A DNA stretch of 64,000 nt from Flavobacteriales bacterium (GTDB lineage Bacteria > Bacteroidota > Bacteroidia > Palsa-965): positions 64,001-128,000 of the forward strand of contig JBEIPA010000014.1 in NCBI GenBank assembly GCA_040377305.1. Direction: 5' to 3'. The first letter of the stretch is position 1, and each line of letters starts with the position of its first letter. The position numbers and the translations under genes were made by a program. Shown piece after piece: positions 22,482-39,282 of this stretch. The notes below the pieces were generated by a model. The model saw only the letters and a list, made by a program, of their open reading frames with translations, was not told the origin of the DNA and searched no databases.

Positions 22482-23885
22482 TTACCCATCCATTCGCACG
22501 ATACGCGGACTGAACTTTCCTACGATGTCGACTAAATCAACTTGCGCCTCCATCACCTGAAAAATGTCTTTGTACGCATGTGGCGATTCATCCAGACCAC
22601 CACCGATTAACGTCACGTTATTTTCTTTCAGCACAGATTTCATCTCTGCATTCGTTACGTTTTTCATTGCTGCTGTACGCGACATTTTACGTCCCGCTCC
22701 ATGAGAAGCAGAGTTGATGGAAATGCTCGCACCTTTTCCGCGTACAATGAATCCCGGTGCAGTCATCGATCCCGGAATAATTCCGAGAACGCCTTTGCCG
22801 GCAGGTGTTGCACCTTTACGATGCACGATTACATCTTTGCCGTTGAATTTTTCTTTCCATGCAAAGTTGTGGTGGTTTTCTACCATCGCGATGGGTTCAA
22901 CACCAAGCGCAGCTGCAATCTTCTCGTGAATTTTGTGATGACACGCCGAAGCATAATCACCAGCGAGATTCATTGCAAGCCAATACTCTTGTCCTTCCTG
23001 AGTTGAAAGATCAAGCCACGCAAGATGTTTTGCTTCCTGCGGCAAACGACATTTCTCCATTGCCACTTTCGTGTAATGGTTCGCAATCGTTGCGCCAAGT
23101 CCGCGCGAACCGGAATGCGACAACAACGCGAGGTATCGACCTAATGGAAGATTGAACTCGTTGTTCTCATCGCTGATATCAACAACTCCGAATTCCACAA
23201 AGTGATTTCCCGAACCGGATGTTCCCATTTGCTTCACTGCTTTCAGCTGCAGACCTTTCAGCAATGGAATTTCATCGAACAACTTTCGGTCAGTCACTTC
23301 AAACTCTTTGTTCTCCTTGAACTCTTGTCCTGAACCAAAGAGTGTATTATCCGTAAGCACTTTGTAAAGTCCGCGCGAGTCGGTGTCGATGATCTCGTGC
23401 GGAGTCGGAAAAATACTCAGGCACATTCGGCAACCGATGTCGACGCCAACTCCATAAGGAATAATTGCGTTTTCCGTAGCGAGTACACCACCGATCGGCA
23501 ATCCATAACCCTGATGCGCATCCGGCATCAAAGCACCGGCAACTGCAACCGGCAAACGAATTGCCACATCCATTTGTTTACGCGCACCATCTTCGATCTG
23601 ATCTCCACCGTAAATTGCGTAAGATCCTTGTTCGATGCGCAATGCAATTTCGGGACCTTCCGCTTCTTTCGGCTTTTCCGTCAACGCATCCGCAATCGCA
23701 GCGAGGTTCGTGTCGTCGAGATAATCCGCAGGTGCAGCAAGAATATTTTTCAGCATCTCCATCACATCTTCACGTGATGATTTGCGGTAATACTTTTCAA
23801 TGATGTTGAGGGCAATTCCCACAACGCGTCCTTGTTTGTATCCAAGTTCGCGAAGGTGATCTCCGGTGATGTTTAATTTGTTCAT
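22482..23885 (-). CDS. rtcB: RtcB RNA ligase (copy 1)
   Basis: MPDAH.GYGLPIGG, VGVDIGC, GNHFVE, HSGSRG, HNFA, HRKGAT, SHGAGR. Confidence 0.95.
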   Translation of the reverse strand: MNKLNITGDHLRELGYKQGRVVGIALNIIEKYYRKSSREDVMEMLKNILAAPADYLDDTNLAAIADALTEKPKEAEGPEIALRIEQGSYAIYGGDQIEDGARKQMDVAIRLPVAVAGALMPDAHQGYGLPIGGVLATENAIIPYGVGVDIGCRMCLSIFPTPHEIIDTDSRGLYKVLTDNTLFGSGQEFKENKEFEVTDRKLFDEIPLLKGLQLKAVKQMGTSGSGNHFVEFGVVDISDENNEFNLPLGRYLALLSHSGSRGLGATIANHYTKVAMEKCRLPQEAKHLAWLDLSTQEGQEYWLAMNLAGDYASACHHKIHEKIAAALGVEPIAMVENHHNFAWKEKFNGKDVIVHRKGATPAGKGVLGIIPGSMTAPGFIVRGKGASISINSASHGAGRKMSRTAAMKNVTNAEMKSVLKENNVTLIGGGLDESPHAYKDIFQVMEAQVDLVDIVGKFSPRIVRMDG

Positions 23886-24514
23886 TTTACTAATTGTATT
23901 TCTTGTGTAACATAAATTCGAGGTTGTTCAACTTTATTTGTTGACTCGAATTTCATAGCGATGATTTCTTCGCAAGCGCGAGTAATGTGCACAACCATTT
24001 CATCGACATTAATATTTAATATCCCGTCTGCACGAAGAATTGTACCTCCACCTTGCGCATGTGAAAACCTGAGTTTGCCCTTTGGGGCAAAACAGTGAAC
24101 TAAGCCGCATCGCATTTCATCATATAGATCAAATGTTCCATTGGATTCTGCTTTTAAATACGCTCGATAATCCTTAAGAGATGCGAGATTCCGAATGGAG
24201 CGCTCAAAGTCCTCACGAACAGTGCCCGATTTATCCCAAACTGTTGGGGAATTTTCATTTATACACTTTCCGAAGAATTCAATTGCCGAACTCATGCAAA
24301 TTGCCCCGAGCCATGGCGATACTTTAACCACAGCTTGCATTTCGTCAATAAGTACAGTCCGCATAAATTGCTTAGTTGGAATGGGCATCTGCACAACAAA
24401 ATGTGATTTATCATCAGTAAAGCCAAAGACAACATTTTTCATTTGTTCATCCGTGAAAAGGTGCTTTCGTTGAAACTCTTGAAGGATCGATTGAACTGAT
24501 ATTTCTTTCATCAT
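23882..24514 (-). CDS. Putative HEPN-domain protein
   Basis: Helical ORF with AIEFFG and RCGLVH (Rx4H); 4-nt overlap with the rtcB start. Confidence 0.55.
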   Translation of the reverse strand: MMKEISVQSILQEFQRKHLFTDEQMKNVVFGFTDDKSHFVVQMPIPTKQFMRTVLIDEMQAVVKVSPWLGAICMSSAIEFFGKCINENSPTVWDKSGTVREDFERSIRNLASLKDYRAYLKAESNGTFDLYDEMRCGLVHCFAPKGKLRFSHAQGGGTILRADGILNINVDEMVVHITRACEEIIAMKFESTNKVEQPRIYVTQEIQLVK

Positions 24515-24552
24515 GATTATTCTATACTAATCAATTTACAAAATTTGTTTTG

Positions 24553-24623
24553 ACGACCGACAGGGATTCGAACCCCGATCCTCAGATTCGTATTCTGAGA
24601 TTCTTCCGTTGAACTATCGATCG
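24553..24623 (-). tRNA. tRNA-Arg(ACG), atypical
   Basis: CGATCGA/TCGGTCG acceptor, TCAGA-ATACGAA-TCTGA anticodon arm, GGTTCGAATCC. Confidence 0.85.
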
Positions 24624-24656
24624 AAATACAGTGTCGGGATACGATCCCGACACCTC

Positions 24657-24788
24657 ACAGGCAAAAAGCGAAAAGAGACTGTTTGCATTGCTCTACCACT
24701 GAGCTACACACAACTTTCGCTATGTGGCCGGATTCGAACCGGCGTCCCATGGATTGGAAGTCGAAGTAACTCTTTTCTACGGCACTGT
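24657..24788 (-). ncRNA. Y RNA (YrlA-like) with circularly permuted tRNA domain (Y1)
   Basis: 5' GTGCCGTA-GAAAAGAG-TTACTTC stem closed by CTCTTTTC; T arm precedes a GAAA-capped acceptor stem and a D arm (TAGCTCAGTGGTAGAGC); downstream of the TROVE gene. Confidence 0.85.
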
Positions 24789-24794
24789 TCATTG

Positions 24795-24868
24795 GGTGTT
24801 AGATCGGTTTCGATCCGATTACCTCTTGCTTCACAAGCAAGCGCTCTCCCGAGTGAGCTACAAACACC
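24795..24868 (-). tRNA. tRNA-His(GTG)
   Basis: G-1:C73, CTTGC-TTGTGAA-GCAAG arm, unusual T loop ATCGAAA. Confidence 0.85.
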
Positions 24869-24873
24869 GTGTT

Positions 24874-24957
24874 CAGTAGGCAGTTTGGCAGTAGTGCAGT
24901 TGGCAGTCAAAATATAATTCTCTGACTGCCTACTGCCCAACTGCTTACTGCCTACTG
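24874..24957. repeat. CAGTAGG/CAGTTGG heptamer hairpin spacer
   Basis: Tandem cagtNgg units followed by their reverse complement. Confidence 0.8.
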
Positions 24958-24963
24958 TTCTTG

Positions 24964-25037
24964 TACTCTGTGTGGGATTCGAACCCACGTGATCTGGTCG
25001 AAAACCAGATATACTAGACCAACTATATGAACAGAGC
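24964..25037 (-). tRNA. tRNA-Glu(TTC)
   Basis: GCTCTGT/ACAGAGT acceptor, TCTGG-TTTTCGA-CCAGA arm, GTGGG-TTCGAAT-CCCAC. Confidence 0.88.
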
Positions 25038-25122
25038 CTGATTGATTTGCGGATGACGCGCCGGGTTCTCTCCTTTGGAGAGTTAGAGAGGCGCGGCGCG
25101 TAATCCGCAAATCAATCTTCAG

Positions 25123-25196
25123 TCGCGACAGCAGGATTCGAACCTACATCTTCTCCAGTCCAAGTGGAGAGGCTTAGCCAATTAGCCGACCTCGCG
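25123..25196 (-). tRNA. tRNA-Pro(TGG)
   Basis: C1-G72, A73, CTCCA-CTTGGAC-TGGAG arm; one acceptor mismatch. Confidence 0.82.
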
Positions 25197-25285: not shown

Positions 25286-25390
25286 TGTGAGGAAAAAATC
25301 ACAGAAAAGACGAAAGCGCCATCTTTCGATGTCAGGATTCGAACCTGTTTCTTCCTGCCACGAAGTATCTCTTCTGTTACGTCACTCACA
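25286..25390 (-). ncRNA. Y-like RNA Y2 (T arm + short capped stem)
   Basis: GTGACGTA-ACAGAAGAG-ATACTTC stem; CAGG-TTCGAAT-CCTG; CATC-GAAA-GATG. Confidence 0.7.
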
Positions 25391-25523: not shown

Positions 25524-26051
25524 TTATCTCGTCGGGATCTTCAATCCCATTTTCTTCATCGCAAGCAATGCTTCTGCATTTCCGATTGCGTCGTTGACCG
25601 GGTTGTGATCATGACGCGTTTTGCGAAACAATCGCTTCCACTCGCTGTTCAGTCCTCCATCCATTTTCATTCCACAATACAGATCACCGATTCGTCTGCC
25701 TGAAAATCCAAACGGATTTTTTCCCAGGTAGAAATGGAAGTAATAATTAATCCACTGCCAATCGAACGCGAGGTTATCGCTGATGAATATTGCTTTGCCG
25801 TCGGATGTTGCGTTCAACCATTCGGAGAAACGTTTCATCACTTCGGCGGGCTCCTCGAACGACTCGTGTTGCCCGCGTGTGAAACCACTTACTGCAAGTG
25901 CATCCGGAATCCATTCTTTGGAAATTGGTTGCGTCTTTCCGTAGAATGTTTTCGCGAGTGTGGGTTCTATCACCACTGCACCGAAGCAAACCATCGAATA
26001 TTTATTTGGGATGGGCCCATCGGCCTCTACATCCACTACTATGTAACTCAT
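25524..26051 (-). CDS. DEDDh 3'-5' exo(ribo)nuclease
   Basis: VDVEADG (ExoI), DNLAFD (ExoII), HNPVNDA (ExoIII). Confidence 0.85.
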   Translation of the reverse strand: MSYIVVDVEADGPIPNKYSMVCFGAVVIEPTLAKTFYGKTQPISKEWIPDALAVSGFTRGQHESFEEPAEVMKRFSEWLNATSDGKAIFISDNLAFDWQWINYYFHFYLGKNPFGFSGRRIGDLYCGMKMDGGLNSEWKRLFRKTRHDHNPVNDAIGNAEALLAMKKMGLKIPTR

Positions 26052-26083
26052 TTTGTTTTTGTTTTTAATCAATTTAATAATTT

Positions 26084-26156
26084 AAGCTGGCAACAAACTC
26101 GCAGAGGTTTTGGTCTAATTAACAGTTAGAAGTAACTCTGCAATACGGCACAGCTT
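26084..26156 (-). ncRNA. Y-like RNA Y4 (minimal, anticodon stem-loop cargo)
   Basis: GTGCCGTA-TTGCAGAG-TTACTTC stem with CTCTGCGA; TCTAA-CTGTTAA-TTAGA hairpin. Confidence 0.7.
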
Positions 26157-26214
26157 GCCGATGTGCCGATTTCCAATATGCCAATATGCCGATTGGAAAT
26201 ACCTCAATAAAATT

Positions 26215-26332
26215 CGGAAGCAAAAAACGATTCGGGTGGGGCGTCGCAATGAGGATTTGCACCTCTTCCTGGTTTTTACATCAGGACCCTTGCCCCCTGT
26301 CGAGCGAAGTATCCCGGCTCTACGGCATTCCG
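26215..26332 (-). ncRNA. Y-like RNA Y5
   Basis: ATGCCGTA-GAGCCGGG-ATACTTC, terminal CGGAA/TTCCG pairing, GAGG-TGCAAAT-CCTC T-loop-like hairpin. Confidence 0.62.
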
Positions 26333-26335
26333 TTT

Positions 26336-26421
26336 CAGTAGGCCGTTTGGCAGGCGTTCAGTAGGCAGTCAAAATTTATTCCTAATGACTGCCGACTGCA
26401 CTACCGCACTACTGCCTACTG
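26336..26421. repeat. CAGTAGG heptamer hairpin spacer
   Basis: Same family as 24874-24957. Confidence 0.75.
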
Positions 26422-26427
26422 ATTAAA

Positions 26428-26645
26428 CAACGGTAACTGGCAACAAGTCTGCTTTCTGCTTTCACAGAATACGGCCGTCCTATTTCTGTATTGCTACAGA
26501 CAGTTGACTGGTAATCATCATCCGCATGGTGTCAGGATCTGAAATCCTGATACTGCGCACTCAGATTAACGTTCGCGAACCACAGTTACCCGTGCATCAC
26601 TACCTTAGGACCGTTATCGAAGTATGACCCGTTTACGACACGTTG
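26428..26645 (-). ncRNA. Y-like RNA Y6 with 23S rRNA H69/H70-like cargo
   Basis: CAACG/CGTTG ends, GTGTCGTA-AACGGGTC-ATACTTC paired with GACTTGTT; cargo contains ATAACGGTCCTAAGGTAG and CGGCCGTA. Confidence 0.65.
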
Positions 26646-26766: not shown

Positions 26767-28281
26767 CTACAACTCGAGTTGTTTTATCATCGCGATTGCA
26801 TCTGTACCGTTTTCTGCAGCATACAATACGTCGAACACTTTATCTGACCAGCCCGCGATGAGTGTTACATCGTCGCGCTGCACACTGATTGGTGTGTTAC
26901 CGTAACCTGCGAGGTCGAACAAGTACAGTTTCGCCATTGGCGCAATCTGTTTGTATTCTTTCCACGCCGTCTGCAACGAATCACCGTCAGCTTTGGTATT
27001 CCACATCTGGCAGTCAGTGAACATCATCACTTTGTCCATCACAACATTGCGCTGAACAAGATCTTTGATCACCAGGTAACCATTTGTGGCGTAACCAACT
27101 TCACCTTCCCGCTTGTAGTACTCATCAACATTCGCAAGTACTCCACGGTTAGGCATGTTGATTACCTTCCAGCGATCTCCGAACATTCCGGAAACCACTC
27201 GTTCACACTTGCTCTGCATCAGCATACCCAGTACCAGACCGATATCGAACAAATACACTTTGCTCTTCGCCGAGATTGGTTTCTGCATTGAACCCGAAAC
27301 GTCACACGCAATCAACACACGTGTTTTGTAATCGAATCCGCTGATGTTTTTCGCTGAAGCTACAATTGCATCTTCCAGCGCGTTAAGTATCATCGACACG
27401 TAATCAGCTTTCAGCACTTTCACTTCACGGTATGCAGACAGGAAACGGAATGGCAACTGCTTCGATTTCGCAACCTGGTTTGCATCAGAAAGCGTATCAC
27501 ACACTTTTTTGATTGCATCCCATGATACACCCGCTTCAATCATGTTACGGATGTTACGCAACATCGCCATGTATCCCAGCTTACCGCTGAAGATCAGTTC
27601 TTCCCATTTCGCACGAACCGCAAGCTCTTTTGCTTTTGCATCAGCGAATTTTTGCTGACCCAAAGCAGAAAGTTCAGTTTCCCAGGTATAAGCAACAGAC
27701 AGCTCTTTCGCAGCGATCTTGTTGAAGACTGCTTGCTGTTCATCACTTTTCGCTTTCGGGTGAACAAGGAACAATGCATCACGCAACGTTACTGCCGCTT
27801 CACGGTTGTATTTCGAGAACTGGTATTCATCAAAACGATTGAACGCCTTTGCGAGTCCTTTCTGTACCTGTTTCGAAAGCTTGTTCAGTTTCTTAGTTCC
27901 CGAACGGTTGTTCGCCAGTTGGTAGTAAGCCAGAAGCTCAGTGATCTCATCAGCACGCTGAACGACACCGTTCACCGCTTTGGATACAACTATATTTCCG
28001 GAGTTACGTTTTGCAAGTTCGACTGCAAGCACCTGTGGAATAGAACGCATGTACATTTTGTTACGTGCATACACCGCAAGCTTCGCCACGAATTCAGCAT
28101 CTGTCTTCTCCATGAGATCCACGATACGTTGAAGACGCTCGTTTCCTTTCTCATAGAACGAATCGCTCAGTCCTGCGGTTACTACCGCTGAATACAGTTC
28201 GAGCTCAGGAGTCATTGCGAATGCTTTTGCGCCTTCGTAATTAGTGACTGCTGTTTTACGTTTGAAGATGTTGAATTTCAT
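26767..28281 (-). CDS. rsr: Ro60/Rsr TROVE-domain RNA-binding protein with vWA domain
   Basis: NYEGAKAF, FDEYQFSKY, YTWETELS, LGYMAMLRN, QLPFRF, DVSGSM MIDAS, FTDCQ. Confidence 0.93.
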   Translation of the reverse strand: MKFNIFKRKTAVTNYEGAKAFAMTPELELYSAVVTAGLSDSFYEKGNERLQRIVDLMEKTDAEFVAKLAVYARNKMYMRSIPQVLAVELAKRNSGNIVVSKAVNGVVQRADEITELLAYYQLANNRSGTKKLNKLSKQVQKGLAKAFNRFDEYQFSKYNREAAVTLRDALFLVHPKAKSDEQQAVFNKIAAKELSVAYTWETELSALGQQKFADAKAKELAVRAKWEELIFSGKLGYMAMLRNIRNMIEAGVSWDAIKKVCDTLSDANQVAKSKQLPFRFLSAYREVKVLKADYVSMILNALEDAIVASAKNISGFDYKTRVLIACDVSGSMQKPISAKSKVYLFDIGLVLGMLMQSKCERVVSGMFGDRWKVINMPNRGVLANVDEYYKREGEVGYATNGYLVIKDLVQRNVVMDKVMMFTDCQMWNTKADGDSLQTAWKEYKQIAPMAKLYLFDLAGYGNTPISVQRDDVTLIAGWSDKVFDVLYAAENGTDAIAMIKQLEL

Positions 28282-28327
28282 GACTGTTTGTTTTAATTGT
28301 TATTGACGCTGCAAATGTTTTACTCAT

Positions 28328-28348
28328 CTACGCAATGGTCTTGCGCAG
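28328..28348. promoter_or_regulatory. Candidate WYL-regulator operator (site 1)
   Basis: CTACGCAA-N5-TTGCGCAG just upstream of the TROVE gene. Confidence 0.6.
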
Positions 28349-28434
28349 TTCGATTTATTTTAACTTTTTGTTTTAATCGCCTGATTTTCAGTTGGCATTA
28401 ATTCGTTTTTTCAATCGCAACATTTATTGCGGCG

Positions 28435-28507
28435 TTGGAAAGGAAGGGCTCGAACCTTCGACCTTGTGCGTATAAGGCACGTGCTCTTACCACTGAGCTA
28501 CTCTCCA
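28435..28507 (-). tRNA. tRNA-Ile(TAT)
   Basis: TGGAGAG/CTTTCCA acceptor, GTGC-CTTATAC-GCAC arm, canonical D and T arms. Confidence 0.82.
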
Positions 28508-28514
28508 AGTCTTG

Positions 28515-28586
28515 CGGCGCGGATTGGACTTGAACCAATATAATCTCCCTTAACAGGGGAGAGCTCTACCATTGAGCTACCAGGCC
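28515..28586 (-). tRNA. tRNA-Asn(GTT)
   Basis: CTCCC-CTGTTAA-GGGAG arm, G73; one acceptor mismatch. Confidence 0.85.
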
Positions 28587-28591
28587 ATTTG

Positions 28592-28664
28592 CGGTAACGA
28601 TGGGATTCGAACCCACAACTTTCCGATAGACAATCGGACGCTCTAGCCGTTGAACTACGCTACC
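28592..28664 (-). tRNA. tRNA-Asp(GTC)
   Basis: GGTAGCG/CGTTACC, TCCGA-TTGTCTA-TCGGA arm, G73. Confidence 0.87.
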
Positions 28665-28669
28665 ATTTG

Positions 28670-28742
28670 TGGACAAGGAAGGAATTGAACCTTCATCTTC
28701 TGATCTTCAGTCAGCCGCATTCACCGCGTTTGCTACCTGTCC
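28670..28742 (-). tRNA. tRNA-Phe(GAA)
   Basis: GGACAGG/CTTGTCC, CTGA-CTGAAGA-TCAG arm. Confidence 0.85.
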
Positions 28743-28748
28743 GTTTTG

Positions 28749-28822
28749 TTGACCCACCAGGGCTCGAACCTGGAACCCCCACTTTAAAAGAGCGGTGCAT
28801 CTAACCATTGAGCTATGGATCA
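28749..28822 (-). tRNA. tRNA-Lys(TTT)
   Basis: TGATCCA/TGGGTCA, CCGCT-CTTTTAA-AGTGG arm. Confidence 0.85.
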
Positions 28823-28835
28823 ATATTTCTTCGCT

Positions 28836-28891
28836 TGTCCTCCTTCGGCAAAGCCTGTGCTGAGCGAAGTCGAAGTGCTCAGTCTGACAAG
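28836..28891. repeat. REP-like element (CTGAGCGAAGTCGAAG family)
   Basis: ctgagcgaagtcgaag core; inverted relative cttcgactacgctcag at about 28988-29003. Confidence 0.6.
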
Positions 28892-28894
28892 TCG

Positions 28895-28965
28895 TTGTCG
28901 GAAATGGATTTGAACCACTATAGCCAGATTCAAACTCTGGTGTCCTACCATTAGACGATCCGACA
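28895..28965 (-). tRNA. tRNA-Gln(TTG)
   Basis: TGTCGGA/TCCGACA, CCAGA-GTTTGAA-TCTGG arm. Confidence 0.87.
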
Positions 28966-29010: not shown

Positions 29011-29041
29011 ATAAAAAAACCCGGTCGTGTGCGGACCGGGT
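29011..29041 (-). terminator. Attenuator terminator 2
   Basis: ACCCGGTC-loop-GACCGGGT followed by a T tract on - strand. Confidence 0.85.
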
Positions 29042-29064
29042 CTAACAAATCAGTTCAACTGATT

Positions 29065-29154
29065 TCAGTTATGACAACATCGGTCCACGAATTTTCCTTT
29101 CTGAAAATCTCGTTCGCTAAAATTGGGCAAGGCTATATAACTATGTTTCTTCAT
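29065..29154 (-). CDS. Leader peptide 2 (MKKHSYIALPNFSERDFQKGKFVDRCCHN)
   Basis: 29-aa ORF ending just before the terminator; contains GGACCG complementary to the terminator 5' arm. Confidence 0.7.
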   Translation of the reverse strand: MKKHSYIALPNFSERDFQKGKFVDRCCHN

Positions 29155-29252: not shown

Positions 29253-29282
29253 AATAAAAAAGCCCCGAATCTCTCCGGGGCT
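29253..29282 (-). terminator. Attenuator terminator 1
   Basis: AGCCCCGG-loop-TCGGGGCT followed by TTTTTATT. Confidence 0.85.
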
Positions 29283-29307
29283 TTACTTCAGTTATATCCT
29301 AAAGCAA

Positions 29308-29385
29308 TTACACCCCGTGCAACAGACGATCTCCTTCGAGATTTATCTGTTTGCGTGTTTGCGGATATGTAAAATGCTTTTTCAT
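29308..29385 (-). CDS. Leader peptide 1 (MKKHFTYPQTRKQINLEGDRLLHGV)
   Basis: 25-aa ORF after a TATATTTG promoter; ends in CGGGGT complementary to the terminator 5' arm. Confidence 0.7.
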   Translation of the reverse strand: MKKHFTYPQTRKQINLEGDRLLHGV

Positions 29386-29489: not shown

Positions 29490-29510
29490 CTGCGCAAATA
29501 CATTGCGCAG
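29490..29510. promoter_or_regulatory. Candidate WYL-regulator operator (site 2)
   Basis: Perfect CTGCGCAA-N5-TTGCGCAG 35 nt upstream of the WYL gene. Confidence 0.65.
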
Positions 29511-29545: not shown

Positions 29546-30574
29546 ATGCCGATAAACAAACTCGCACTCATCCGCTACAAGACAATTGATAACTGTCTGC
29601 AGAACCGTTTCCGCAAATGGACACTTGACGATCTAGTGGATGCATGCTCGCGTACACTGGAAGAGTTCGAAGGAATTACACAAGGAGTAAGCAAGCGTAC
29701 TGTTCAGCTCGATATTCAGACGATGCGCAGTGAAAAGCTAGGATACAATGCTCCTATTGTGGTCAGCGACAAGAAGTATTATTCGTACGAAGACAAGAAT
29801 TACAGCATCACGAATATTCCGTTGACGAGTCAGGATTTAGGAACGCTCACGGAAGTTGTAGATATTCTACGCCAGTTTAAAGGGTTCGGTTACTTCGAAG
29901 AGCTCAGCACAATGGTGAACAAGCTCGAGGACAAAGTGCAGTCTCAGAAGAACAAAGGTCGCTCGTATATACACTTTGAGAAAAATGATTTGCTAAAAGG
30001 TCTCGAGTACATCGAATCATTGCACAAGGCGATCATTCGTCAGAAAACGATTGACGTATTATATCAGTCGTTCAAAGCACGTGAAGCGACAAGCATCATT
30101 TTTCATCCTTATCTGCTCAAGGAATACCGCAACCGCTGGTTTGTGATCGGCTCAACGCAAAAGAAAACAATTCTTACTCTGGCACTGGATAGAATTTTTT
30201 CTGTGAAAGAAGTCGGTGGAGAGAAATACATCAAGAATACCTTCTTTGATGTTGACTCGTACTTTGATGATACGATTGGCGTTACGAAGAATCTCGGGAT
30301 TCGACCACAATTGGTCGTGATGAAAATTGATCGTACGAATGCGCCATACGTAATCACAAAACCGATTCACCACACGCAGAAGATTCTGAAGACAGAACCC
30401 GACGGAATGATTTTCAGTATTAACGTGACGTGGAATTTTGAGTTGGAAAGAGAAATCCTTGGGTTTGGTGAACAGATAAAGGTGTTATCGCCAAAGAGAT
30501 TGCAGAATAAGATTAGCTGGAGGGTGAAGAGGATGGTGGAGAGGTATGAGGAACTTCAACCAAATGAACGATGA
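29546..30574 (+). CDS. wHTH-WYL-WCX transcriptional regulator
   Basis: N-terminal HTH (VSKRTVQLDIQTMR), HPYLLKEYRNRWFV and LALDRI WYL motifs, VLSPKRL tail. Confidence 0.92.
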   Translation: MPINKLALIRYKTIDNCLQNRFRKWTLDDLVDACSRTLEEFEGITQGVSKRTVQLDIQTMRSEKLGYNAPIVVSDKKYYSYEDKNYSITNIPLTSQDLGTLTEVVDILRQFKGFGYFEELSTMVNKLEDKVQSQKNKGRSYIHFEKNDLLKGLEYIESLHKAIIRQKTIDVLYQSFKAREATSIIFHPYLLKEYRNRWFVIGSTQKKTILTLALDRIFSVKEVGGEKYIKNTFFDVDSYFDDTIGVTKNLGIRPQLVVMKIDRTNAPYVITKPIHHTQKILKTEPDGMIFSINVTWNFELEREILGFGEQIKVLSPKRLQNKISWRVKRMVERYEELQPNER

Positions 30575-31660: not shown

Positions 31661-32293
31661 ATGAAAATCATAGCCATTTCAGATACACACGGTCAGCATG
31701 GGAAGGTTGTGCTACCGGAAGGTGATGCGATTATTCACGCTGGTGATGTTTCCGTACGTGGAACTGAATCGCAGATCGTCGATTTCATCAACTGGTTTTC
31801 GGGACTGAACTATCGGTACAAGATTTTCATTGCGGGCAATCATGACTTCTTCTTCGAAAGAGAGTCACAGGAGAAAATCAAATCTCTGATTCCCGAGAAC
31901 GTTATATACCTGAACGATTCCGGTATTGAACTAGAAGGAATCAAAATCTGGGGCTCGCCGATTCAACCCTGGTTTCAGGACTGGGCGTTTAATCGGCAGA
32001 GAGGAATTGATATTCGTAAACACTGGGACATGATTCCGGGTGACACGGATATACTCATCACTCACGGGCCAGCGAAAGGAATTCTCGATCGCTTGGTTTA
32101 CGGAGAAGAAGTTGGTTGTGTTGATCTTCTTGACGCGGTTAACAGAATCAATCCCGCCTTTCATGTCTTCGGCCACATTCATGAAGGATACGGAGAGCAT
32201 CAAGAAGGGAAAACTAAATTCATTAACGCTGCCGTTCTCAATGAAGATTATTTCCTCGCGAATTCACCAATAGCATTTGAGTTCCTAAAATAA
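31661..32293 (+). CDS. Calcineurin-like metallophosphoesterase
   Basis: SDTH, HAGD, AGNHD, THGP, GHIH. Confidence 0.92.
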   Translation: MKIIAISDTHGQHGKVVLPEGDAIIHAGDVSVRGTESQIVDFINWFSGLNYRYKIFIAGNHDFFFERESQEKIKSLIPENVIYLNDSGIELEGIKIWGSPIQPWFQDWAFNRQRGIDIRKHWDMIPGDTDILITHGPAKGILDRLVYGEEVGCVDLLDAVNRINPAFHVFGHIHEGYGEHQEGKTKFINAAVLNEDYFLANSPIAFEFLK

Positions 32294-32294
32294 G

Positions 32295-32380
32295 TTGGGT
32301 AGGCCGGATTCGAACCGACATGTTTAGCACGTGGCAGCAGATTTACAGTCTGCCCCCTTCACCAGTTTGGATACTACCCA
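32295..32380 (-). tRNA. tRNA-Tyr(GTA) copy A
   Basis: TGGGTAG/CTACCCA, GCAGA-CTGTAAA-TCTGC, long variable region. Confidence 0.87.
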
Positions 32381-32384
32381 GTTT

Positions 32385-32455
32385 CAGTAAGCAGTTGTGC
32401 AGTTGGCGGTATCATAATTTGACTGCTTGCTGCCAGGCTGCACTACTGCCTACTG
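32385..32455. repeat. CAGTAAG/CAGTTG heptamer hairpin spacer
   Basis: Same family; duplicated together with tRNA-Tyr. Confidence 0.75.
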
Positions 32456-32461
32456 TTTCAG

Positions 32462-32544
32462 CGGAAGATATAGGAGTCGAACCCTGTCCTTTCGGACCGC
32501 CCCAGATTTCAAGTCTGGTTGACCACCATCGGTCGCTATCTTCC
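32462..32544 (-). tRNA. tRNA-Ser(TGA), non-canonical cloverleaf
   Basis: 8-bp GGAAGATA/TATCTTCC acceptor, G73, CCAGA-CTTGAAA-TCTGG, GTCC-GAAA-GGAC variable arm, short T stem. Confidence 0.75.
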
Positions 32545-32552
32545 AATAATTG

Positions 32553-32640
32553 CGGAGAACATTGGAATTGAACCAATAGTTCACTTTCGCGAACGCACAT
32601 TAGCAGTGTGCTGCAACGAGCCAATAGTTGCCTGCTCTCC
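32553..32640 (-). tRNA. tRNA-Ser(GCT), atypical
   Basis: GGAGAGC/GTTCTCC, G73, GCACA-CTGCTAA-TGTGC, 6-bp variable arm, A8, 5-bp D stem. Confidence 0.82.
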
Positions 32641-32643
32641 TTA

Positions 32644-32725
32644 CAGTAGGCAGTTGGGCAGTCGTTCAGTAGTCAGTCAAGTATTTTTTTGACTGCCTAC
32701 TGCCAAACTGCATTACTGCTTACTG
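32644..32725. repeat. CAGTAGG heptamer hairpin spacer
   Basis: Same family. Confidence 0.75.
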
Positions 32726-32731
32726 GCAAAG

Positions 32732-32805
32732 TACTCCGAAGCAGATTCGAACTGCTACTTAACGGGGCTTAACGCCGTTGTCTCTTCCAGTTGGACTACC
32801 GGAGT
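32732..32805 (-). tRNA. tRNA-Leu(TAA), short variable loop
   Basis: ACTCCGG/TCGGAGT, loop GTTAAGC, A73. Confidence 0.75.
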
Positions 32806-32814
32806 AAAAATTAG

Positions 32815-32900
32815 TTGGGTAGACAGGATTCGAACCTGTACGTTTAGCACATGGCAGCAGATTTACAGTCTGCCCCCTTCACCAGTTTGGATACTACCCA
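32815..32900 (-). tRNA. tRNA-Tyr(GTA) copy B
   Basis: Near-identical to copy A with compensatory T-stem changes. Confidence 0.87.
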
Positions 32901-32904
32901 GTTT

Positions 32905-32980
32905 CAGTAGGCAGTAAGCAGTTGTGCAGTTGGCAGTATCATAATTTGACTGCTTACTGCACACTGCACTGCTGCCTACT
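32905..32980. repeat. CAGTAGG heptamer hairpin spacer
   Basis: Same family. Confidence 0.75.
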
Positions 32981-32987
32981 TCTTTCG

Positions 32988-33060
32988 TAGCGATAAAGAG
33001 ATTCGAACTCTTACTGAACGGTTTCTAAGACCGTTGCCTCTGCCGTTGGGCTACATCGCT
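32988..33060 (-). tRNA. tRNA-Leu(TAG), short variable loop
   Basis: AGCGATG/TATCGCT, ACGGT-CTTAGAA-ACCGT, A73. Confidence 0.83.
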
Positions 33061-33120: not shown

Positions 33121-33154
33121 AAAACAAAAAGCCTCCTGATGTTTTCAGGAGGCT
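33121..33154 (-). terminator. Attenuator terminator 3
   Basis: AGCCTCCTGA-loop-TCAGGAGGCT followed by TTTTGTTTT. Confidence 0.88.
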
Positions 33155-33179
33155 CTCGTATACTGTATGATATTACAGA

Positions 33180-33260
33180 TTACACAATACAATCCTCCCT
33201 GTCATTCGTGAGTGAATAACTGCTCAATAAGAGGAGAGAATATGTGTTTACTGTTTTCAT
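33180..33260 (-). CDS. Leader peptide 3 (MKTVNTYSLLLLSSYSLTNDREDCIV)
   Basis: 26-aa ORF between a CACCTTTG promoter-like element and the terminator; CAGGGAGG can pair with the terminator 5' arm. Confidence 0.8.
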   Translation of the reverse strand: MKTVNTYSLLLLSSYSLTNDREDCIV

Positions 33261-33363: not shown

Positions 33364-33402
33364 ATGAAGGAAGTCTTCAACCATCAACCGCTTCACTCTT
33401 GA
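33364..33402 (+). CDS. Putative leader peptide MKEVFNHQPLHS
   Basis: 12-aa ORF directly after the promoter, ahead of the RNA ligase operon. Confidence 0.45.
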   Translation: MKEVFNHQPLHS

Positions 33403-33506: not shown

Positions 33507-34205
33507 ATGGCTATTTCAAGAAAATACGGCCGTACATACCATTATCCATTTTCTCCCGGAACTACAAGCGATGATCGCATCAGCCACGACTACTGGAATG
33601 ATGTGACAAAAATTGCTTCGCTGATTCACACGGAAAAACTGGACGGTGAAAACAATTGCCTTAATCGTTATGGTGTTTTTGCGCGTTCGCATGCGGCCCC
33701 ATCGCAATCGCCGTGGACGGCATGGTTGCGTGAACGTTGGGAGTTACTGAAACATGATCTCGGTGATCTGGAAATATTCGGCGAGAATCTTTACGCAATA
33801 CATTCAATCGAATACGCGAAGCTGGAAAATCATTATTATGTTTTCGGTGTGCGGCGCGAAGATCATTGGTTGTCGTGGGAGGAAACTAAGTTCTATGCGA
33901 GTATGCTGGACTTTCCGACTGTACCTGAGATTCAACTTATTTCGACACCCATCGACCGGAAAGTATTCGAAGCCGATGTGCTTTCGATTGTTTCGCAGGA
34001 AAGTAAAATGGGAAGCCTCGATGCTTTCACCGGCAAAGTCTGCACGATGGAAGGAATTGTAACCCGCAACACCGGCGAATATGCCGTAACTGATTTCGCG
34101 CATCATGTTTTCAAATACGTGCGAAAAAGTCACGTGAAAACAGATGCACACTGGACACGTAACTGGAGAAGATCAAAACTGATCTGGGAACGAGCCGGCG
34201 ACTAA
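33507..34205 (+). CDS. ATP-dependent RNA ligase family protein
   Basis: KYGRTYHYPFSPG..DD, motif I TEKLDGEN, FGEN, EGIVTR, FKYV. Confidence 0.88.
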   Translation: MAISRKYGRTYHYPFSPGTTSDDRISHDYWNDVTKIASLIHTEKLDGENNCLNRYGVFARSHAAPSQSPWTAWLRERWELLKHDLGDLEIFGENLYAIHSIEYAKLENHYYVFGVRREDHWLSWEETKFYASMLDFPTVPEIQLISTPIDRKVFEADVLSIVSQESKMGSLDAFTGKVCTMEGIVTRNTGEYAVTDFAHHVFKYVRKSHVKTDAHWTRNWRRSKLIWERAGD

Positions 34206-34223: not shown

Positions 34224-35336
34224 ATGTTTATGTGGACAATTTCGGATATAAAGCAATGGCAAACGCTCTACGACAAGTTCGACTGGGTGCGCGATATGCG
34301 TGGCGTTCCCCAGGATCGCGTGCATCATGCAGAAGGTGATGTGGAAGTACATACGCGCATGGTACTTGATGCGTTGGAAAATCTTCCAGACTATCAGCAA
34401 CTGAATGAACAGGACAGAGAAATTCTTTGGGCTTCTGCTTTGCTGCACGATGTAGAAAAACGATCAACTACTATTCACAATGAAGACGGACGTATATCTT
34501 CTCCCAATCACGCAAAAAAGGGTGCAGCTACAACGCGCAGTTTGTTGTACCGCAACATTCCCGCACCGTTTCATATTCGCGAAGCTGTGGTGAAGCTCGT
34601 GCGTTATCACGGCTTACCGCTGTGGGTATTCCATAAACCTGATCCGGCAAAAGCGCTAATTGCGGCAAGTCTTTCCGTGAATACGCATCACCTTAGTCTG
34701 CTCGCTGAAGCAGATGTGCTTGGAAGAGAATGCGCGGATCGTAATGAACTTCTTTATCGTGTGGAAATGTTTCGGGAACTATGCAAAGAACAGCTCGCGT
34801 ATGGAAAAGCAAAATCCTTTCCATCTGAACTCAGCAAGATGAACTATTTCCGGAAAGAAGACGGTTCGCCGGACTATGAACCATTCGACGTTACGCAATG
34901 TGAAGTAGTTTTACTTTCAGGTTTGCCGGGATCAGGAAAAGACAATTATCTGCGGAAATATCTGAAAGAGTGGCCGGTGGTAAGCATCGATGACATTCGA
35001 AAGAAAAATAAAATCTCCCCGACGGATAAAAAAGGAAATGGCCAGGCGATACAGATGGCGAAGGAACAGGCGCGAGTATACCTGCGAAGCAAAACTTCAT
35101 TCGTGTGGAATGCAACGAACATCACGCGATCTATGCGAGGGCAGTTGATTGATCTGTTTCTCACTTACAAAGCGAAAGTGAAGATCGTGTACGTAGAGGT
35201 TCCTTACGCCACATTGCGTAGACAAAACCGCGAACGTGAACACGTGGTTCCGGCAGCTGCATTGGAGAAATTAATCGATAAGCTGGAGGTTCCAACGCCG
35301 GACGAAGCGCATGAGATCATATATGAAATAAAATAG
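34224..35336 (+). CDS. HD-domain phosphohydrolase + P-loop (polynucleotide kinase-like) protein
   Basis: HHAEGDV..HT, ALLHDVEK, GLPGSGK Walker A, WNATN. Confidence 0.87.
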   Translation: MFMWTISDIKQWQTLYDKFDWVRDMRGVPQDRVHHAEGDVEVHTRMVLDALENLPDYQQLNEQDREILWASALLHDVEKRSTTIHNEDGRISSPNHAKKGAATTRSLLYRNIPAPFHIREAVVKLVRYHGLPLWVFHKPDPAKALIAASLSVNTHHLSLLAEADVLGRECADRNELLYRVEMFRELCKEQLAYGKAKSFPSELSKMNYFRKEDGSPDYEPFDVTQCEVVLLSGLPGSGKDNYLRKYLKEWPVVSIDDIRKKNKISPTDKKGNGQAIQMAKEQARVYLRSKTSFVWNATNITRSMRGQLIDLFLTYKAKVKIVYVEVPYATLRRQNREREHVVPAAALEKLIDKLEVPTPDEAHEIIYEIK

Positions 35337-36787: not shown

Positions 36788-37402
36788 TCAGAGCGGCTCG
36801 CGTATTATTTTACCCGCATTTCCCCTCTGCAACGAATGGTGCTCCAGCCATTGCGACCTTTGTTGCGCGTTCAATTCATCGACATGCATACCGAGCAGTT
36901 TATTCTTCAAACGTTCAGTAGCTGCTTTTTTATTCAACATCTGCGAACGTTCCTCTGAAGCCGTAACACTGATTCCGCTTGGAACATGCGTAGCACGAAC
37001 TGCTGATTCCGTTTTGTTCACATGCTGTCCACCGGGACCTGATGCGCGCATGGTTTGATACGTAACGTCTTTCTCTTTCCATTCAGGAAAAACGGATACA
37101 TCATAAACGTGGATGCCCGCAAACCAATTTTTTCGTTTGTGGTTTTTCCGGAACGGACTCTGCGCAATCCACTGCACGGTTCCTTCCCACTCTATATAGA
37201 ACGAAGACACGTTTTCTCCTCTGATCCGGATCAGTGCCGACAACAACGTATCATCCGGCTTCCCGGGAACAAGCTCAATGATTTCCACACCGAGCTGTTC
37301 CCGTTCTGCCGCTTTCGTAATCTTCTTAAGAAGAAGCGCCACAACTCTTTCGCATTCTGCCGGACCTTTGCCGGAAGTTATCTGCATGATTTTTTCTTTC
37401 AT
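36788..37402 (-). CDS. prfH: Peptide chain release factor H
   Basis: TSGKGPAEC, GTVQW...SPFR..HKRKNWF, GGQ motif; adjacent to rtcB. Confidence 0.93.
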   Translation of the reverse strand: MKEKIMQITSGKGPAECERVVALLLKKITKAAEREQLGVEIIELVPGKPDDTLLSALIRIRGENVSSFYIEWEGTVQWIAQSPFRKNHKRKNWFAGIHVYDVSVFPEWKEKDVTYQTMRASGPGGQHVNKTESAVRATHVPSGISVTASEERSQMLNKKAATERLKNKLLGMHVDELNAQQRSQWLEHHSLQRGNAGKIIREPL

Positions 37403-37407
37403 CGTTT

Positions 37408-38814
37408 CTATTCTTTATTCATGCGTACAATCTTCGGCGTAAACTTTCCGTGAACCTCCACGAGATCCTGCTGTGCCTTCATCACGTCATCGATGTCTTT
37501 GTATGCAAGAGGCGATTCTTCAGAACTTCCTCCGACCATCGTTACATCTGCAGCATTCAGCATTTGTCGTAATCCGGAATTCGTAATAGATTCCTTCGCT
37601 TTTTTACGCGACATTTTTCTGCCCGCTCCATGCGAAGCAGAGTTTAGTGATTCCGGAACTCCTTTGCCACACACGAGATATCCACCGTGAATCATGTTAC
37701 CAGGAATAATTCCAAGCTCGCCTTTGTGCGCCGGCGTAGCACCTTTACGATGAACAATCATCTCTGCTCCATCTTCCATCGTCTCTTTCCATGCAAAGTT
37801 GTGATGATTCTCTACTTTCGCAACTGGTTTAATTCCGAGTGCACGAGAGAGATTGATGTGAATCCTGTCGTGACACGCTTTCGCGTAATCGCCTGCAAGA
37901 TTCATACTCAGCCAATATTCCTGTCCTTCCGCGCTGGTGAGATCAAGCCACGCCATGTGTTGTGCATTGCGCGGAAGCTTGCACACGTCCATCGCAACAT
38001 CCGTGTAGTGCTTTGCGATTGTTGCACCCAATCCGCGTGAACCGGAATGCGACAAGAGTGCAACATAATTTCCTGCCGCCATGCCCAGTGTATTTTCCTC
38101 ATTGAGTTCAATCACACCAAACTCTACGAAGTGATTTCCTCCACCCGATGATCCCAGCTGTCTGACTGCTTTACCATGCAATTTTTTCAGCAGTTGCGTT
38201 TCATTGAACGACGGATCATCAAGCACATCATGATCCTGCGCGAATTCCAGACATCCTTCCATTCCGAAGTGCGTGTAATCTTTCAGCGCCATTTTCAATT
38301 CGTGCCGGTTATGTTCAAGATACTTTTCCGGCAAATCAAAAATGGAAAGCGCCATGCGACAACCAATGTCAACACCAACTCCAAATGGAATTACTGCATT
38401 CTCCGCAGCAAGCACACCTCCAATCGGCAAACCGAATCCGCTGTGCGCATCAGGCATCAGCGCTCCTCGTCTGCTTACCGGTAAGCTCAACGCAATTTCC
38501 ATTTGCTGAATTGCTGAGTACTCGATGTGTTGACGTCCGTAGATTTTCACCGGAGCCAACTCGCTGAGCAATTCATGCGTGCGATACTTTTTGTCGGGTA
38601 ATCTTTCCATGAACGTAGACGCCAGTTTCGACAACACTCCATCGCCCAGAAATTCTTCCGGATTTGCTTTCACCTCACAGAACAATTTCAGCACCTCTTC
38701 CTTTGCAGTGTGCTTGAAATGTTGCGACGCGATGATCACTGCCAGACTTTTCGATGTATTGTGATGAAAGCCCATGCGATCGAGATCTTTACTTTTAACT
38801 TTATTCTTACTCAT
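37408..38814 (-). CDS. rtcB: RtcB RNA ligase (copy 2, PrfH-associated)
   Basis: All RtcB motifs present; start MSKNK at 38814 by comparison with copy 1. Confidence 0.93.
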   Translation of the reverse strand: MSKNKVKSKDLDRMGFHHNTSKSLAVIIASQHFKHTAKEEVLKLFCEVKANPEEFLGDGVLSKLASTFMERLPDKKYRTHELLSELAPVKIYGRQHIEYSAIQQMEIALSLPVSRRGALMPDAHSGFGLPIGGVLAAENAVIPFGVGVDIGCRMALSIFDLPEKYLEHNRHELKMALKDYTHFGMEGCLEFAQDHDVLDDPSFNETQLLKKLHGKAVRQLGSSGGGNHFVEFGVIELNEENTLGMAAGNYVALLSHSGSRGLGATIAKHYTDVAMDVCKLPRNAQHMAWLDLTSAEGQEYWLSMNLAGDYAKACHDRIHINLSRALGIKPVAKVENHHNFAWKETMEDGAEMIVHRKGATPAHKGELGIIPGNMIHGGYLVCGKGVPESLNSASHGAGRKMSRKKAKESITNSGLRQMLNAADVTMVGGSSEESPLAYKDIDDVMKAQQDLVEVHGKFTPKIVRMNKE

Positions 38815-38971
38815 TTGTTTCTTCGTTGTTGAATTTAAGTTCTTTGAATTCTCTTCCCACTGTAAGCCGAATCCGTTGCTTCTCCTCTTGTGTCTTTCGG
38901 ATCTGAGTTCTTCTTCGTTTTGTTCTGAACCTTCCGGACAAGACATAGGAATCCCATGTGGCTGTTGCCAT
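38807..38971 (-). CDS. Small basic protein (54 aa) coupled to rtcB copy 2
   Basis: MATATWDSYVLSGRFRTKRRRTQIRK...; A-rich initiation context; stop overlaps the rtcB start (ATGAGTAA). Confidence 0.5.
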   Translation of the reverse strand: MATATWDSYVLSGRFRTKRRRTQIRKTQEEKQRIRLTVGREFKELKFNNEETNE

Positions 38972-39123
38972 TGTTTTTTGTTGTGTTGAATAAACAGTGA
39001 ATTATTCCGATGAATCAGAAGACCTGCAAATGCAACCACGGGCCACAGAAATTCTGTAGTTAGTCAGCGCCGACTATGAAAACTTTATTCGTAAAAAATG
39101 GAAATAGAATTCAAAGCCGCGCT

Positions 39124-39168
39124 TTACGCGGAGAACTGCAGAGGTGATATGTTCGCTTGTTCTTTCAT
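39124..39168 (-). CDS. Putative leader peptide MKEQANISPLQFSA
   Basis: 14-aa ORF preceded by TAAGGAGG at 6-nt spacing. Confidence 0.55.
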   Translation of the reverse strand: MKEQANISPLQFSA

Positions 39169-39282
39169 GATGCTCCTCCTTACTTGTTAGAAGAGATTTG
39201 AATTCTGTGGCAAATATGATGAAATAAATAAATCACTTCCAAATTTATTTTCATAAAATAATTTTGGAAGTGCGTGGACTCT

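Follow-up and report, generated by a model that had tools for sequence, protein, structure and literature searches.

The window analysed here is a stretch of 64,000 nucleotides (nt) from a chromosomal contig of a Flavobacteriales bacterium (JBEIPA010000014.1, positions 64,001 to 128,000; genome G000, 5.18 Mb, 99.99% complete), and positions 22482 to 39182 of the window hold a cluster of genes for RNA ligases, transfer RNAs (tRNAs), Y RNAs and Rsr (Ro60). We hold with modest confidence that these accreted repair modules, spare tRNAs and Y RNAs would defend translation against anticodon nucleases, and that a core of the cluster, comprising rsr, six Y RNAs, an exonuclease gene, four tRNAs and rtcB, would be activated at a palindromic operator by a regulator with a WYL domain.

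By strand and gene order, the cluster comprised five units: (a) on the minus strand, leaders 1 and 2 with their terminators, ahead of six tRNAs; (b) on the minus strand, rsr, Y1-Y3, the exonuclease gene, Y4-Y5, the tRNAs for Pro, Glu and His, Y6, tRNA-Arg, orf210 and rtcB, followed by a terminator; (c) on the plus strand, the WYL gene, a GyrB-like open reading frame (ORF) and a phosphoesterase gene; (d) a divergent arrangement of leader 3 with six tRNAs and of the genes for a ligase, an HD-kinase, orf183 and a GH25 lysozyme; and (e) on the minus strand, leader 4, a small basic ORF, rtcB and prfH. The original prediction for this DNA had named two RtcB proteins, PrfH, the ligase with its HD-kinase partner, a metallophosphoesterase, an exonuclease, Ro60 and the WYL regulator, and each was found where it had been placed. 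Its 16 tRNAs were recovered, 15 by ARAGORN and tRNA-Ser(UGA) (32463-32544) as a sub-threshold Rfam tRNA-Sec match, and six Y-motif starts located within the cluster agreed with its six Y-like RNAs. It had not listed the GyrB-like ORF, orf210, orf183, the lysozyme, a 54-amino-acid (aa) ORF, two operator palindromes or REP-like repeats. The features of unit (b) and of the WYL gene are as follows.

22443-22469, minus: terminator-like hairpin closing the rsr...rtcB unit
22482-23885, minus: RtcB (A), Pfam RtcB, last gene of the predicted WYL-controlled unit
23882-24514, minus: orf210, unknown helical protein, not seen at relatives' loci
24552-24623, minus: tRNA-Arg(ACG), A32/A37 against housekeeping C32/G37
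24655-24785, minus: Y6 (3' end approximate), permuted tRNA-like RNA of the YrlA type, whose Gly(UCC)-like loop, CUUCCAA, keeps the exact register of a tRNA
24794-24867, minus: tRNA-His(GUG), A37 against housekeeping G37
24963-25037, minus: tRNA-Glu(UUC), G37 against housekeeping A37
25122-25196, minus: tRNA-Pro(UGG), A37 against housekeeping G37
25286-25385, minus: Y5 (3' end approximate), Y-motif RNA bearing a T arm and possibly an Ala(GGC)-like loop
25420-25507, minus: Y4 (3' end approximate), Y-motif RNA in which a hairpin resembles a T arm
25524-26072, minus: DEDDh / Rv2179c-like 3'-5' exonuclease, likely ATG at 26051
26084-26151, minus: Y3, short YrlB-like hairpin RNA ending in a stem of 5 base pairs (bp) with a 7-nt Asn(GUU) loop, CUGUUAA; 3' end approximate
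26202-26328, minus: Y2, Y-motif RNA with a T arm and an acceptor-like stem; 3' end approximate
26480-26641, minus: Y1 (3' end approximate), Y-motif RNA whose terminal stem is the weakest of the set (6 of 8)
26767-28281, minus: Rsr / Ro60 (TROVE and vWA domains)
28312-28347, minus: predicted WYL-dependent rsr promoter, operator palindrome at 28329-28347 with a TA-less -7 box 13 nt downstream
29491-29509, no strand: perfect operator palindrome just upstream of the WYL gene, the best-scoring site in the genome
29546-30574, plus: WYL-WCX regulator, predicted to bind DNA through its N-terminal region; the genome has no other PF13280 match

A repeat search found the operator, a 19-bp palindrome of the form TRCGCAA-N5-TTGCGYA, once before the WYL gene and once before rsr. 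When the genome was scanned with a matrix built from relatives, these two sites ranked first and second (33.0 and 26.4 bits; next 19.5), and nothing was found before units (d) or (e). When at most one mismatch was allowed, 55 of 77 evaluable loci had the operator in the 320 nt upstream of rsr, and it occurred nowhere in 119,290 nt of rsr coding DNA. The -7 box of Bacteroidetes promoters has the consensus TAnnTTTG (PMC9723704). Sixty operator sites lay no more than 130 nt from rsr or rtcB. In all of them, TTTG started 13 or 14 nt past the palindrome (1.4% in shuffles), and the TA was present at one of the 60. Scanned for exact matches, 301 Bacteroidia genomes yielded 25 sites, spread over 21 of them; the reversed motif, used as control, had none. 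The genes downstream were rtcB (10), rsr (5), band-7 (4), rlaP (1) and WYL (1), together 21 of the 25, and the remaining sites preceded a RING-protein block (1), unknown ORFs (2) and a recA-like ORF (1). Twenty of the exact sites had not been known before the scan, and 16 of these precede rtcB, rsr, band-7 or rlaP.

The WYL-WCX layout and a site at the position of the upstream promoter element are shared with DriD of Caulobacter and PafBC of mycobacteria (PMC10853764, PMC8635444), and PafBC activates promoters that have no -35 element (PMC8635444). The operator shares its 19-bp TACG...CGTA core with the DriD consensus, ATACGAC-N7-GTCGTAT, a site that also occurs before DriD's own gene (PMC10853764). 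The targets differ, being RNA-repair rather than DNA-repair genes in our case. In a weak alignment (E 0.77), the Tyr, Ser and last Arg among the residues by which DriD binds single-stranded DNA appear to be kept, whereas the first Arg of beta6, the base-stacking Arg204, is an invariant Ala here; the ligand of the WYL protein may therefore differ. This protein possibly senses RNA rather than DNA damage.

The original prediction had set WYL control in place of RtcR and sigma-54, neither of which it had seen. RtcR (PF06956) indeed had no match in G000 in a search that was positive in the E. coli control, but RpoN is encoded elsewhere in the genome. The sigma-54 consensus carries GG at -24. A sigma-54 reading of the palindrome was rejected, as it has CG at that position, is symmetric and keeps a fixed spacing to the TTTG of the -7 box; a sigma-70 promoter scan remained at chance level. 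The WYL and WCX domains were recognised by Pfam, and the putative winged helix-turn-helix at the N-terminus, which had no Pfam match, is a predicted DNA-binding region. The palindrome likely marks a WYL-activated repair regulon that replaces RtcR. The proposed substitution is supported and has gained a candidate operator, and the palindrome becomes a predicted element for the control of RNA repair independently of RtcR across Bacteroidia. Of 61 genomes, 25 had a WYL match at E<=1e-30 (this tally and that for Rsr below, which also counts G000, are the only ones to include the unpublished G012). Where WYL orthologues lay away from rsr, operator and divergent rtcB were kept in five of seven loci (G027, G051, G053, G029 and G035); of the two exceptions, G022 was cut by a contig end and G036 had an internal stop and no operator or rtcB context.

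At L392 (G267:C23:64329-64365), an exact operator with TTTG precedes an ORF that we take to be recA-like, which echoes the control of recA by DriD and PafBC and may be chance. The sites at L376, L391, L375 and L394 precede uncharacterised ORFs (425, 326, 130 and 127 aa), which are candidate members of the repair regulon.

Rsr was present in 12 of the 61 genomes. In the rsr loci compared (the best 80 of 318, with flanks of at most 10 kilobases (kb), many shorter), WYL was a neighbour in 50/80, any RtcB in 41/80, at least two Y motifs in 66/80 and at least three tRNAs in 19/80; where both flanks reached at least 5 kb (45 loci), rsr was accompanied by WYL in 30, by RtcB in 24, by the ligase in 4 and by PrfH in 2. 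The conserved unit is the core of WYL, rsr, Y RNAs and rtcB and not the 17-kb whole. Many rsr loci were compact WYL-rsr divergons with two operators about 100 nt apart, and in the window and its closest relatives the leader-tRNA cassette lay between the two operators. From this placement, we infer accretion.

The Y motif, TG[CTA]CGTA-N-TACTTC, started at 26641, 26328, 26151, 25507, 25385 and 24785, and the other 5.1 Mb contained six scattered matches. Five of the six Y RNAs closed 7-8 of 8 bp in the terminal stem and Y1 closed 6; this stem and a position within 2.2 kb of rsr suggest binding by Ro60/Rsr. Only Y6 matched Rfam YrlA (RF02553; 39.8 bits, E 6.8e-6, below the gathering score of 69 bits), and only Y6 had the YrlA layout of T arm, closed acceptor stem and D arm, that is, a permuted tRNA. 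Anticodon loops were clear in Y3 (Asn) and Y6 (Gly-like, 3/5 inner stem pairs) and possible in Y5, and the search found none in Y1, Y2 or Y4.

Near rsr, we collected 68 distinct permuted Y RNAs (T arm, then D arm), 28 of which, including Y6, had exactly 19 nt from TACTTC to tRNA position 49. These 28 followed the rules of tRNA loops, with U33 in 26, a purine at 37 in all, a pyrimidine at 32 in 23 and pairs 30:40 and 31:39 in 27, and they presented 17 different triplets; in the other 40 the spacing differed, in 16 cases by no more than one base. The strand after the D arm supplied pairs 27:43 and 28:42, and the Ro-binding stem would therefore be inserted into the anticodon stem. In a hand-chosen set of 22 related class members, 97% of cells were paired and 13/22 pairs showed two-sided changes, above all 500 shuffles and the slid controls. 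Pattern scans blind to the loop gave 238 distinct hits, some of them plain tRNAs, of which 127 had T and D arms and 107 passed the terminal- and acceptor-stem filters (40 viral, 24 genomic and 43 metagenomic RNAs, the metagenomic part of this and the following counts being among the matches listed). U33 was found in 94/107 and a purine at 37 in 107/107, against 22/67 and 34/67 in control matches without T and D arms, and G37 followed G36 in 11/12 metagenomic and 12/12 viral cases. Dimeric tRNAs mistaken for YrlA were recognised by a second T arm in 7 of the 127 hits and dropped. Most viral cases had a distant Rsr nearby, and the class is therefore not limited to Bacteroidota. On the viral contigs (L257-L356), Thr UGU was the commonest anticodon of the YrlA RNAs beside these distant Rsr homologues, and L317 had three such RNAs in tandem.

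Among non-permuted short Y RNAs, 35/183 ended in an anticodon hairpin, compared with 8.3±2.8 in shuffled sequences (maximum 18). One scaffold carried three loops, Lys, Pro and Ser, at L063, L074 and L081, and L018 has a Tyr loop where Y3 of the window has Asn. An exact match to a housekeeping 7-mer was found in 29/80 Y loops (2-4% by chance). At seven anticodons where tRNA arrays mostly differ from housekeeping, Y loops were of housekeeping type at 37 in 22/27, a count made without requiring a purine there; the matching figure for arrays, 14/88, is low by construction because the anticodons were picked for that difference. Judged by these loop rules, a true anticodon loop is retained in many Y RNAs, and different anticodons are exchanged on one scaffold. 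The hairpin before the T arm is described as a less-conserved 'V' loop, with Bacteroidetes YrlAs in the supplement (Chen 2014, PMC4201824), and Salmonella YrlA has no anticodon loop (Wang 2018, 10.1101/312249). Bacterial Y RNAs are known to tether PNPase, and the published YrlA model lacks an anticodon loop; swappable loops obeying tRNA rules offer a direct and cheap test of a decoy role. We tentatively propose that a subfamily of Y RNAs, widespread in bacteria and phages, may be anticodon decoys carried by Ro60, with exchangeable loops of housekeeping type, which in Bacteroidota would be deployed by a WYL activator that senses RNA damage, together with RtcB and escape tRNAs, in an immunity of bait, repair and replacement against anticodon nucleases.

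The remaining tRNAs and their leaders were arranged as follows.

28434-28965, minus: tRNA block 1, Gln(UUG), Lys(UUU), Phe(GAA), Asp(GUC, U37), Asn(GUU), Ile(UAU)
29017-29154, minus: leader 2 (29 aa, 29065-29154) and terminator (29017-29043)
29259-29385, minus: leader 1 (25 aa, 29308-29385) and terminator (29259-29284), with a consensus TAnnTTTG box ahead
32294-33060, minus: tRNA block 3, Leu(UAG), Tyr, Leu(UAA), Ser(GCU), Ser(UGA), Tyr
33127-33260, minus: leader 3 (26 aa, 33180-33260) and terminator (33127-33157)
33364-33402, plus: leader 5 (12 aa), doubtful, frame not conserved
39124-39168, minus: leader 4 (14 aa), whose stop codon is overlapped by a hairpin

A housekeeping copy was found elsewhere for 14 of the 15 cluster anticodons, and the spare and housekeeping isoacceptors were 43-70% identical. 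Position 37 differed in 9/14 anticodons: all five with housekeeping G37 had A37, Asp had U37, and Glu, Phe and Leu(UAA) had G37. Measured against each genome's own housekeeping genes, the change from G37 to A37 held in 5/5 cases in G000, 5/5 in G029 and 4/4 in G020 (14/14), the comparison in G029 and G020 being with 26 tRNA genes per genome and not full sets; the arrays of these two also had Asp U37 and Phe G37. In relatives' arrays, A37 was found in 14/15 Arg, 16/21 Pro and 11/12 Gln tRNAs and U37 in 7/8 Asp tRNAs. Anticodons with U35 were enriched (7/7 against 7/25, p 0.001; post hoc, in one genome). Phage tRNAs predicted to evade anticodon nucleases likewise show isoacceptor changes in the loop outside the anticodon (PMC10264068), whereas the tRNAs described here are encoded in the chromosome of a cell and have repair ligases and Y RNAs with the host-type loop as neighbours. 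The contrast at position 37 extends the idea of escape tRNAs from phages to cellular chromosomes and indicates which loops to assay. The L-array of trn genes in Anabaena, co-regulated with rtcB by the repressor TrcR, is a redundant tRNA set tied to rtcB under stress control (PMC8421152, PMC10272220); here, redundancy was also seen and stress control is putative, but the tRNAs are split into three short blocks, two behind leader-terminators, under another regulator and together with Rsr and Y RNAs.

Some tRNAs stood out individually. tRNA-Ile(UAU) (28434-28507) has the only array anticodon without a housekeeping copy, recurs in 6/80 rsr loci and would read AUA, a rare codon in this genome (6.4 per 1000 codons), without lysidine. 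Leu(UAA) and Leu(UAG) (32731-32805 and 32987-33060) are 74-75 nt long and have no long variable arm, compared with 81-85 nt for housekeeping Leu tRNAs; the short Leu(UAG) recurs in relatives' arrays. At L358 (G051:C39), rlaP-rlaP-WYL / rtcB is followed by a 20-tRNA array without Rsr, whose loops are mostly of housekeeping type at 37. A phage origin of block 1 was not borne out, as only generic short tRNA matches were found, none covering 80% of the query.

All five short leaders that had been predicted exist as ORFs, and leaders 1-3 were conserved ahead of terminators (leader 1 with 25 codons in all five aligned orthologues and in G013, leader 3 with 26 codons in G013). For leader 4, one conserved orthologue was seen, and leader 5 was not conserved in frame. 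All 15 terminators found followed an ORF of 25-34 codons, and in 15/15 the best complement of the terminator's 5' arm lay in or at the end of the last codons of that ORF. A ribosome at the leader stop would mask this strand and cause termination, and a stalled ribosome would allow read-through. The attenuation proposed earlier is supported in this way for the two leader-fronted tRNA blocks.

The favoured explanation joins these observations as follows. Nucleic-acid damage would yield a single-stranded ligand that binds the WYL dimer, and the dimer, at the position of the -33 element, would drive RNA polymerase on the TA-less -7 box in the manner of DriD and PafBC. Cut tRNAs would be resealed by RtcB, Rsr-bound Y RNAs with housekeeping-type anticodon loops would act as bait that occupies the nuclease, and spare tRNAs with changed loops would escape cleavage and continue decoding. 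Independently, the remaining 12 tRNAs would be released when ribosomes stall on leaders 1-3 and thereby free the antiterminator strand. The pairs of ligase with HD-kinase and of PrfH with RtcB may be passengers with promoters of their own and with related roles in repair and rescue. At the level of sequence, the combination of RNA repair, spare tRNAs and tRNA mimics put forward by the original prediction is supported.

It is unlikely, though worth weighing, that the cluster is a general translation-stress regulon rather than a ribotoxin defence. In that case, the A37 spares would need no methylation by TrmD or would tolerate other modification shortfalls, attenuation would release them under antibiotic or starvation stress, and the Y loops would be relics of tRNA dimers. 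All five G37 housekeeping isoacceptors changed in a single direction, to A37, and the leaders have the anatomy of attenuators, as such a regulon would predict. The Anabaena array is induced by ribosome antibiotics together with rtcB (PMC8421152), and the origin of YrlA from dimeric tRNAs proposed by Wang et al. would leave the anticodon arm of the first tRNA upstream of the T arm. However, trmD is present in the genome, and independence of TrmD does not explain the changes of A37 to G (Glu, Phe and Leu(UAA)) or to U (Asp). Moreover, stand-alone anticodon hairpins on YrlB-like RNAs and swapped loops would need ongoing selection or conversion and not a relic.

Several observations weigh against a nuclease defence under WYL activation. 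The relatives behind all supporting counts are not independent; shared ancestry could explain the position-37 pattern without current selection. The 20-tRNA array of G051 retains G37 in Arg, His, Leu and Pro, and that of G013 in Gln and Leu. G020 has rsr, Y RNAs and a tRNA array, yet no WYL match and no operator, and several further rsr loci lack both. Similarity of the window's WYL protein to the PafBC and DriD structures was found at E 0.8-2, and activation rather than repression is read from promoter shape alone. The antiterminator pairing beat shuffles at p<=0.05 in just 8/15 terminators, and the G36-G37 rule held in just 2/5 of the strict genome-derived set. A Y loop showed an anticodon also encoded as a tRNA in the same locus in 8/33 cases (tRNA-rich loci); the Asn loop of Y3 equals the housekeeping and the spare Asn loop alike, and the Gly anticodon of Y6 has no spare tRNA. 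Cleavage in Anabaena was observed for array tRNAs alone, which were proposed to be sponges, the opposite of escape (PMC8421152), and Salmonella YrlA was not cleaved (PMC7790460). Finally, the Runella ligase of the closest known ligase/HD-Pnk pair was adenylylated and joined no tested substrate (PMC6097658), so that the combination of both ligation chemistries claimed for this cluster is hypothetical.

The modules outside the core comprised the following features.

30571-31659, plus: degenerate GyrB-like ORF, not conserved at relatives' loci
31658-32293, plus: calcineurin-like metallophosphoesterase, PADLOC PDC-S10 match
33507-34205, plus: ATP-dependent ligase, PF09414, KxDG motif
34224-35336, plus: HD phosphoesterase and P-loop kinase (HD-Pnk-like; HD and AAA_33)
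36788-37402, minus: PrfH, TIGR03072
37408-38814, minus: RtcB (B), paired with PrfH, Pfam RtcB
38807-38971, minus: 54-aa basic ORF, like the N-terminus of longer proteins preceding prfH or rtcB-prfH in relatives

The original prediction had treated these modules and the core as one co-regulated 17-kb island, with WYL and attenuation over every module, which we now consider improbable. G008 likewise has PrfH-RtcB and ligase-kinase beside the core, G013 holds WYL, phosphoesterase, orf183 and the leader-3 tRNA block together, and the ligase with its HD-kinase was linked to rsr in 6/80 loci. However, the operator occurs in this genome only before WYL and rsr; the ligase-kinase and PrfH-RtcB modules, which have their own -7 boxes, and the third tRNA block are without it. 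PrfH (3/80), the exonuclease (3/80), the phosphoesterase (2/80) and the GyrB-like ORF (0/80) were also rare or absent beside rsr, and in most rsr-bearing relatives the two modules were unlinked or not found. Genome-wide, PrfH was present in 7/61 genomes and the ligase in 5/61; PrfH and rsr lay on different contigs in G016, G020 and G029 and adjoined in G008. The ligase-kinase and PrfH modules assort independently of the core, so that synteny across relatives upheld the core and not the full clustering. It is also improbable that WYL is a repressor until damage occurs, like BrxR or CapW, and that Y loops are tethers for tRNA-binding proteins (modification enzymes, RtcB or the exonuclease) rather than bait: the palindrome overlaps the expected -33 region, WYL repressors are known and Y RNAs are known tethers, but 59/60 target promoters lack the TA of the -7 box and would be weak without an activator, and variable anticodons suit conflict better than a fixed partner.

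The two RtcB proteins were intact and 51% identical, and positions D149/C152/H228/H257/H355/H395, which we take to be catalytic, were invariant. PrfH passed TIGR03072 (252.2 bits against a cut-off of 166.65) and directly follows its RtcB, as in PrfH-linked RtcB2, whereas that RtcB scored below the RtcB2 cut-off of TIGR03073 (139.7 against 271.8 bits) and is a paralogue of the cluster's other RtcB. The HD-kinase showed the HD-Pnk layout, with an N-terminal HD domain, a C-terminal kinase and the ligase ORF immediately upstream. It resembles by arrangement the ligase and HD-Pnk pair of Runella slithyformis, also of the Bacteroidota (PMC6097658), but no Tpt1 or MTase-HIT cassette was seen here. 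The 54-aa ORF resembles the N-termini of charged-helix genes, which are known to accrete around RFH-RtcB (PMC6514570).

The rsr-yrlBA-rtcBA operon of Salmonella, under RtcR/sigma-54, likewise combines Rsr and rtcB with RNAs of the YrlA and YrlB kinds in a single unit on one strand, and shares the theme of tRNA damage (PMC4201824, PMC7790460). In the present cluster, WYL and the palindrome stand in place of RtcR, there are six Y RNAs, some with anticodon loops, and tRNA genes lie inside the unit. The RtcA family was absent among the cluster ORFs, which were the part of the genome searched for it. Linkage of WYL to rtcB and rsr is itself probably already in print. Burroughs and Aravind reportedly described in 2016 RtcB neighbourhoods with Ro/TROVE, Band-7, RlaP and WYL. 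In the literature searched, we found no description of the operator or of a regulon of rtcB and rsr under WYL, nor of Y RNAs that bear anticodons or of shifts at position 37 in cellular arrays, and the operator and loop patterns may be new to print.

Other proteins of the cluster gave weaker leads. The phosphoesterase (31658-32293) matched the PADLOC candidate system PDC-S10 (E 2e-93), and the exonuclease matched a PADLOC 'Effector' exonuclease model. The GyrB-like ORF overlaps the WYL stop codon, scored far below gyrB cut-offs and was seen in none of the 80 related loci; it is possibly a decoy or a recent insertion. orf183 fell into unnamed clusters with a weak C1q/BclA lead. orf210 had no Pfam match and no homologue, a single-sequence model with a pLDDT of 36 and unnamed Atlas neighbours.

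The GC content of the cluster, about 0.45, equalled that of the genome, and neither the 20 distant flanking ORFs scanned nor the nearer ones yielded an integrase; a mobile genomic island is therefore unsupported, attachment sites not having been searched specifically. REP-like palindromic repeats (CAGTAGGCAG units) lie between tRNAs at 24872-24957, 26334-26422 and 32385-32981 and may be processing sites. Their core 11-mer had 121 matches genome-wide, and this spread ruled them out as a feature of the island. In G015 (L001:7168-7367), a broken rtcB remnant adjoins tRNA-Leu(UAG) and occupies the same site in the chromosome, by the LytTR pair, which suggests module turnover. Elsewhere in the window, positions 49286-50938 encode an ice-binding-like protein (PF11999) with a type IX secretion system (T9SS) sorting domain.

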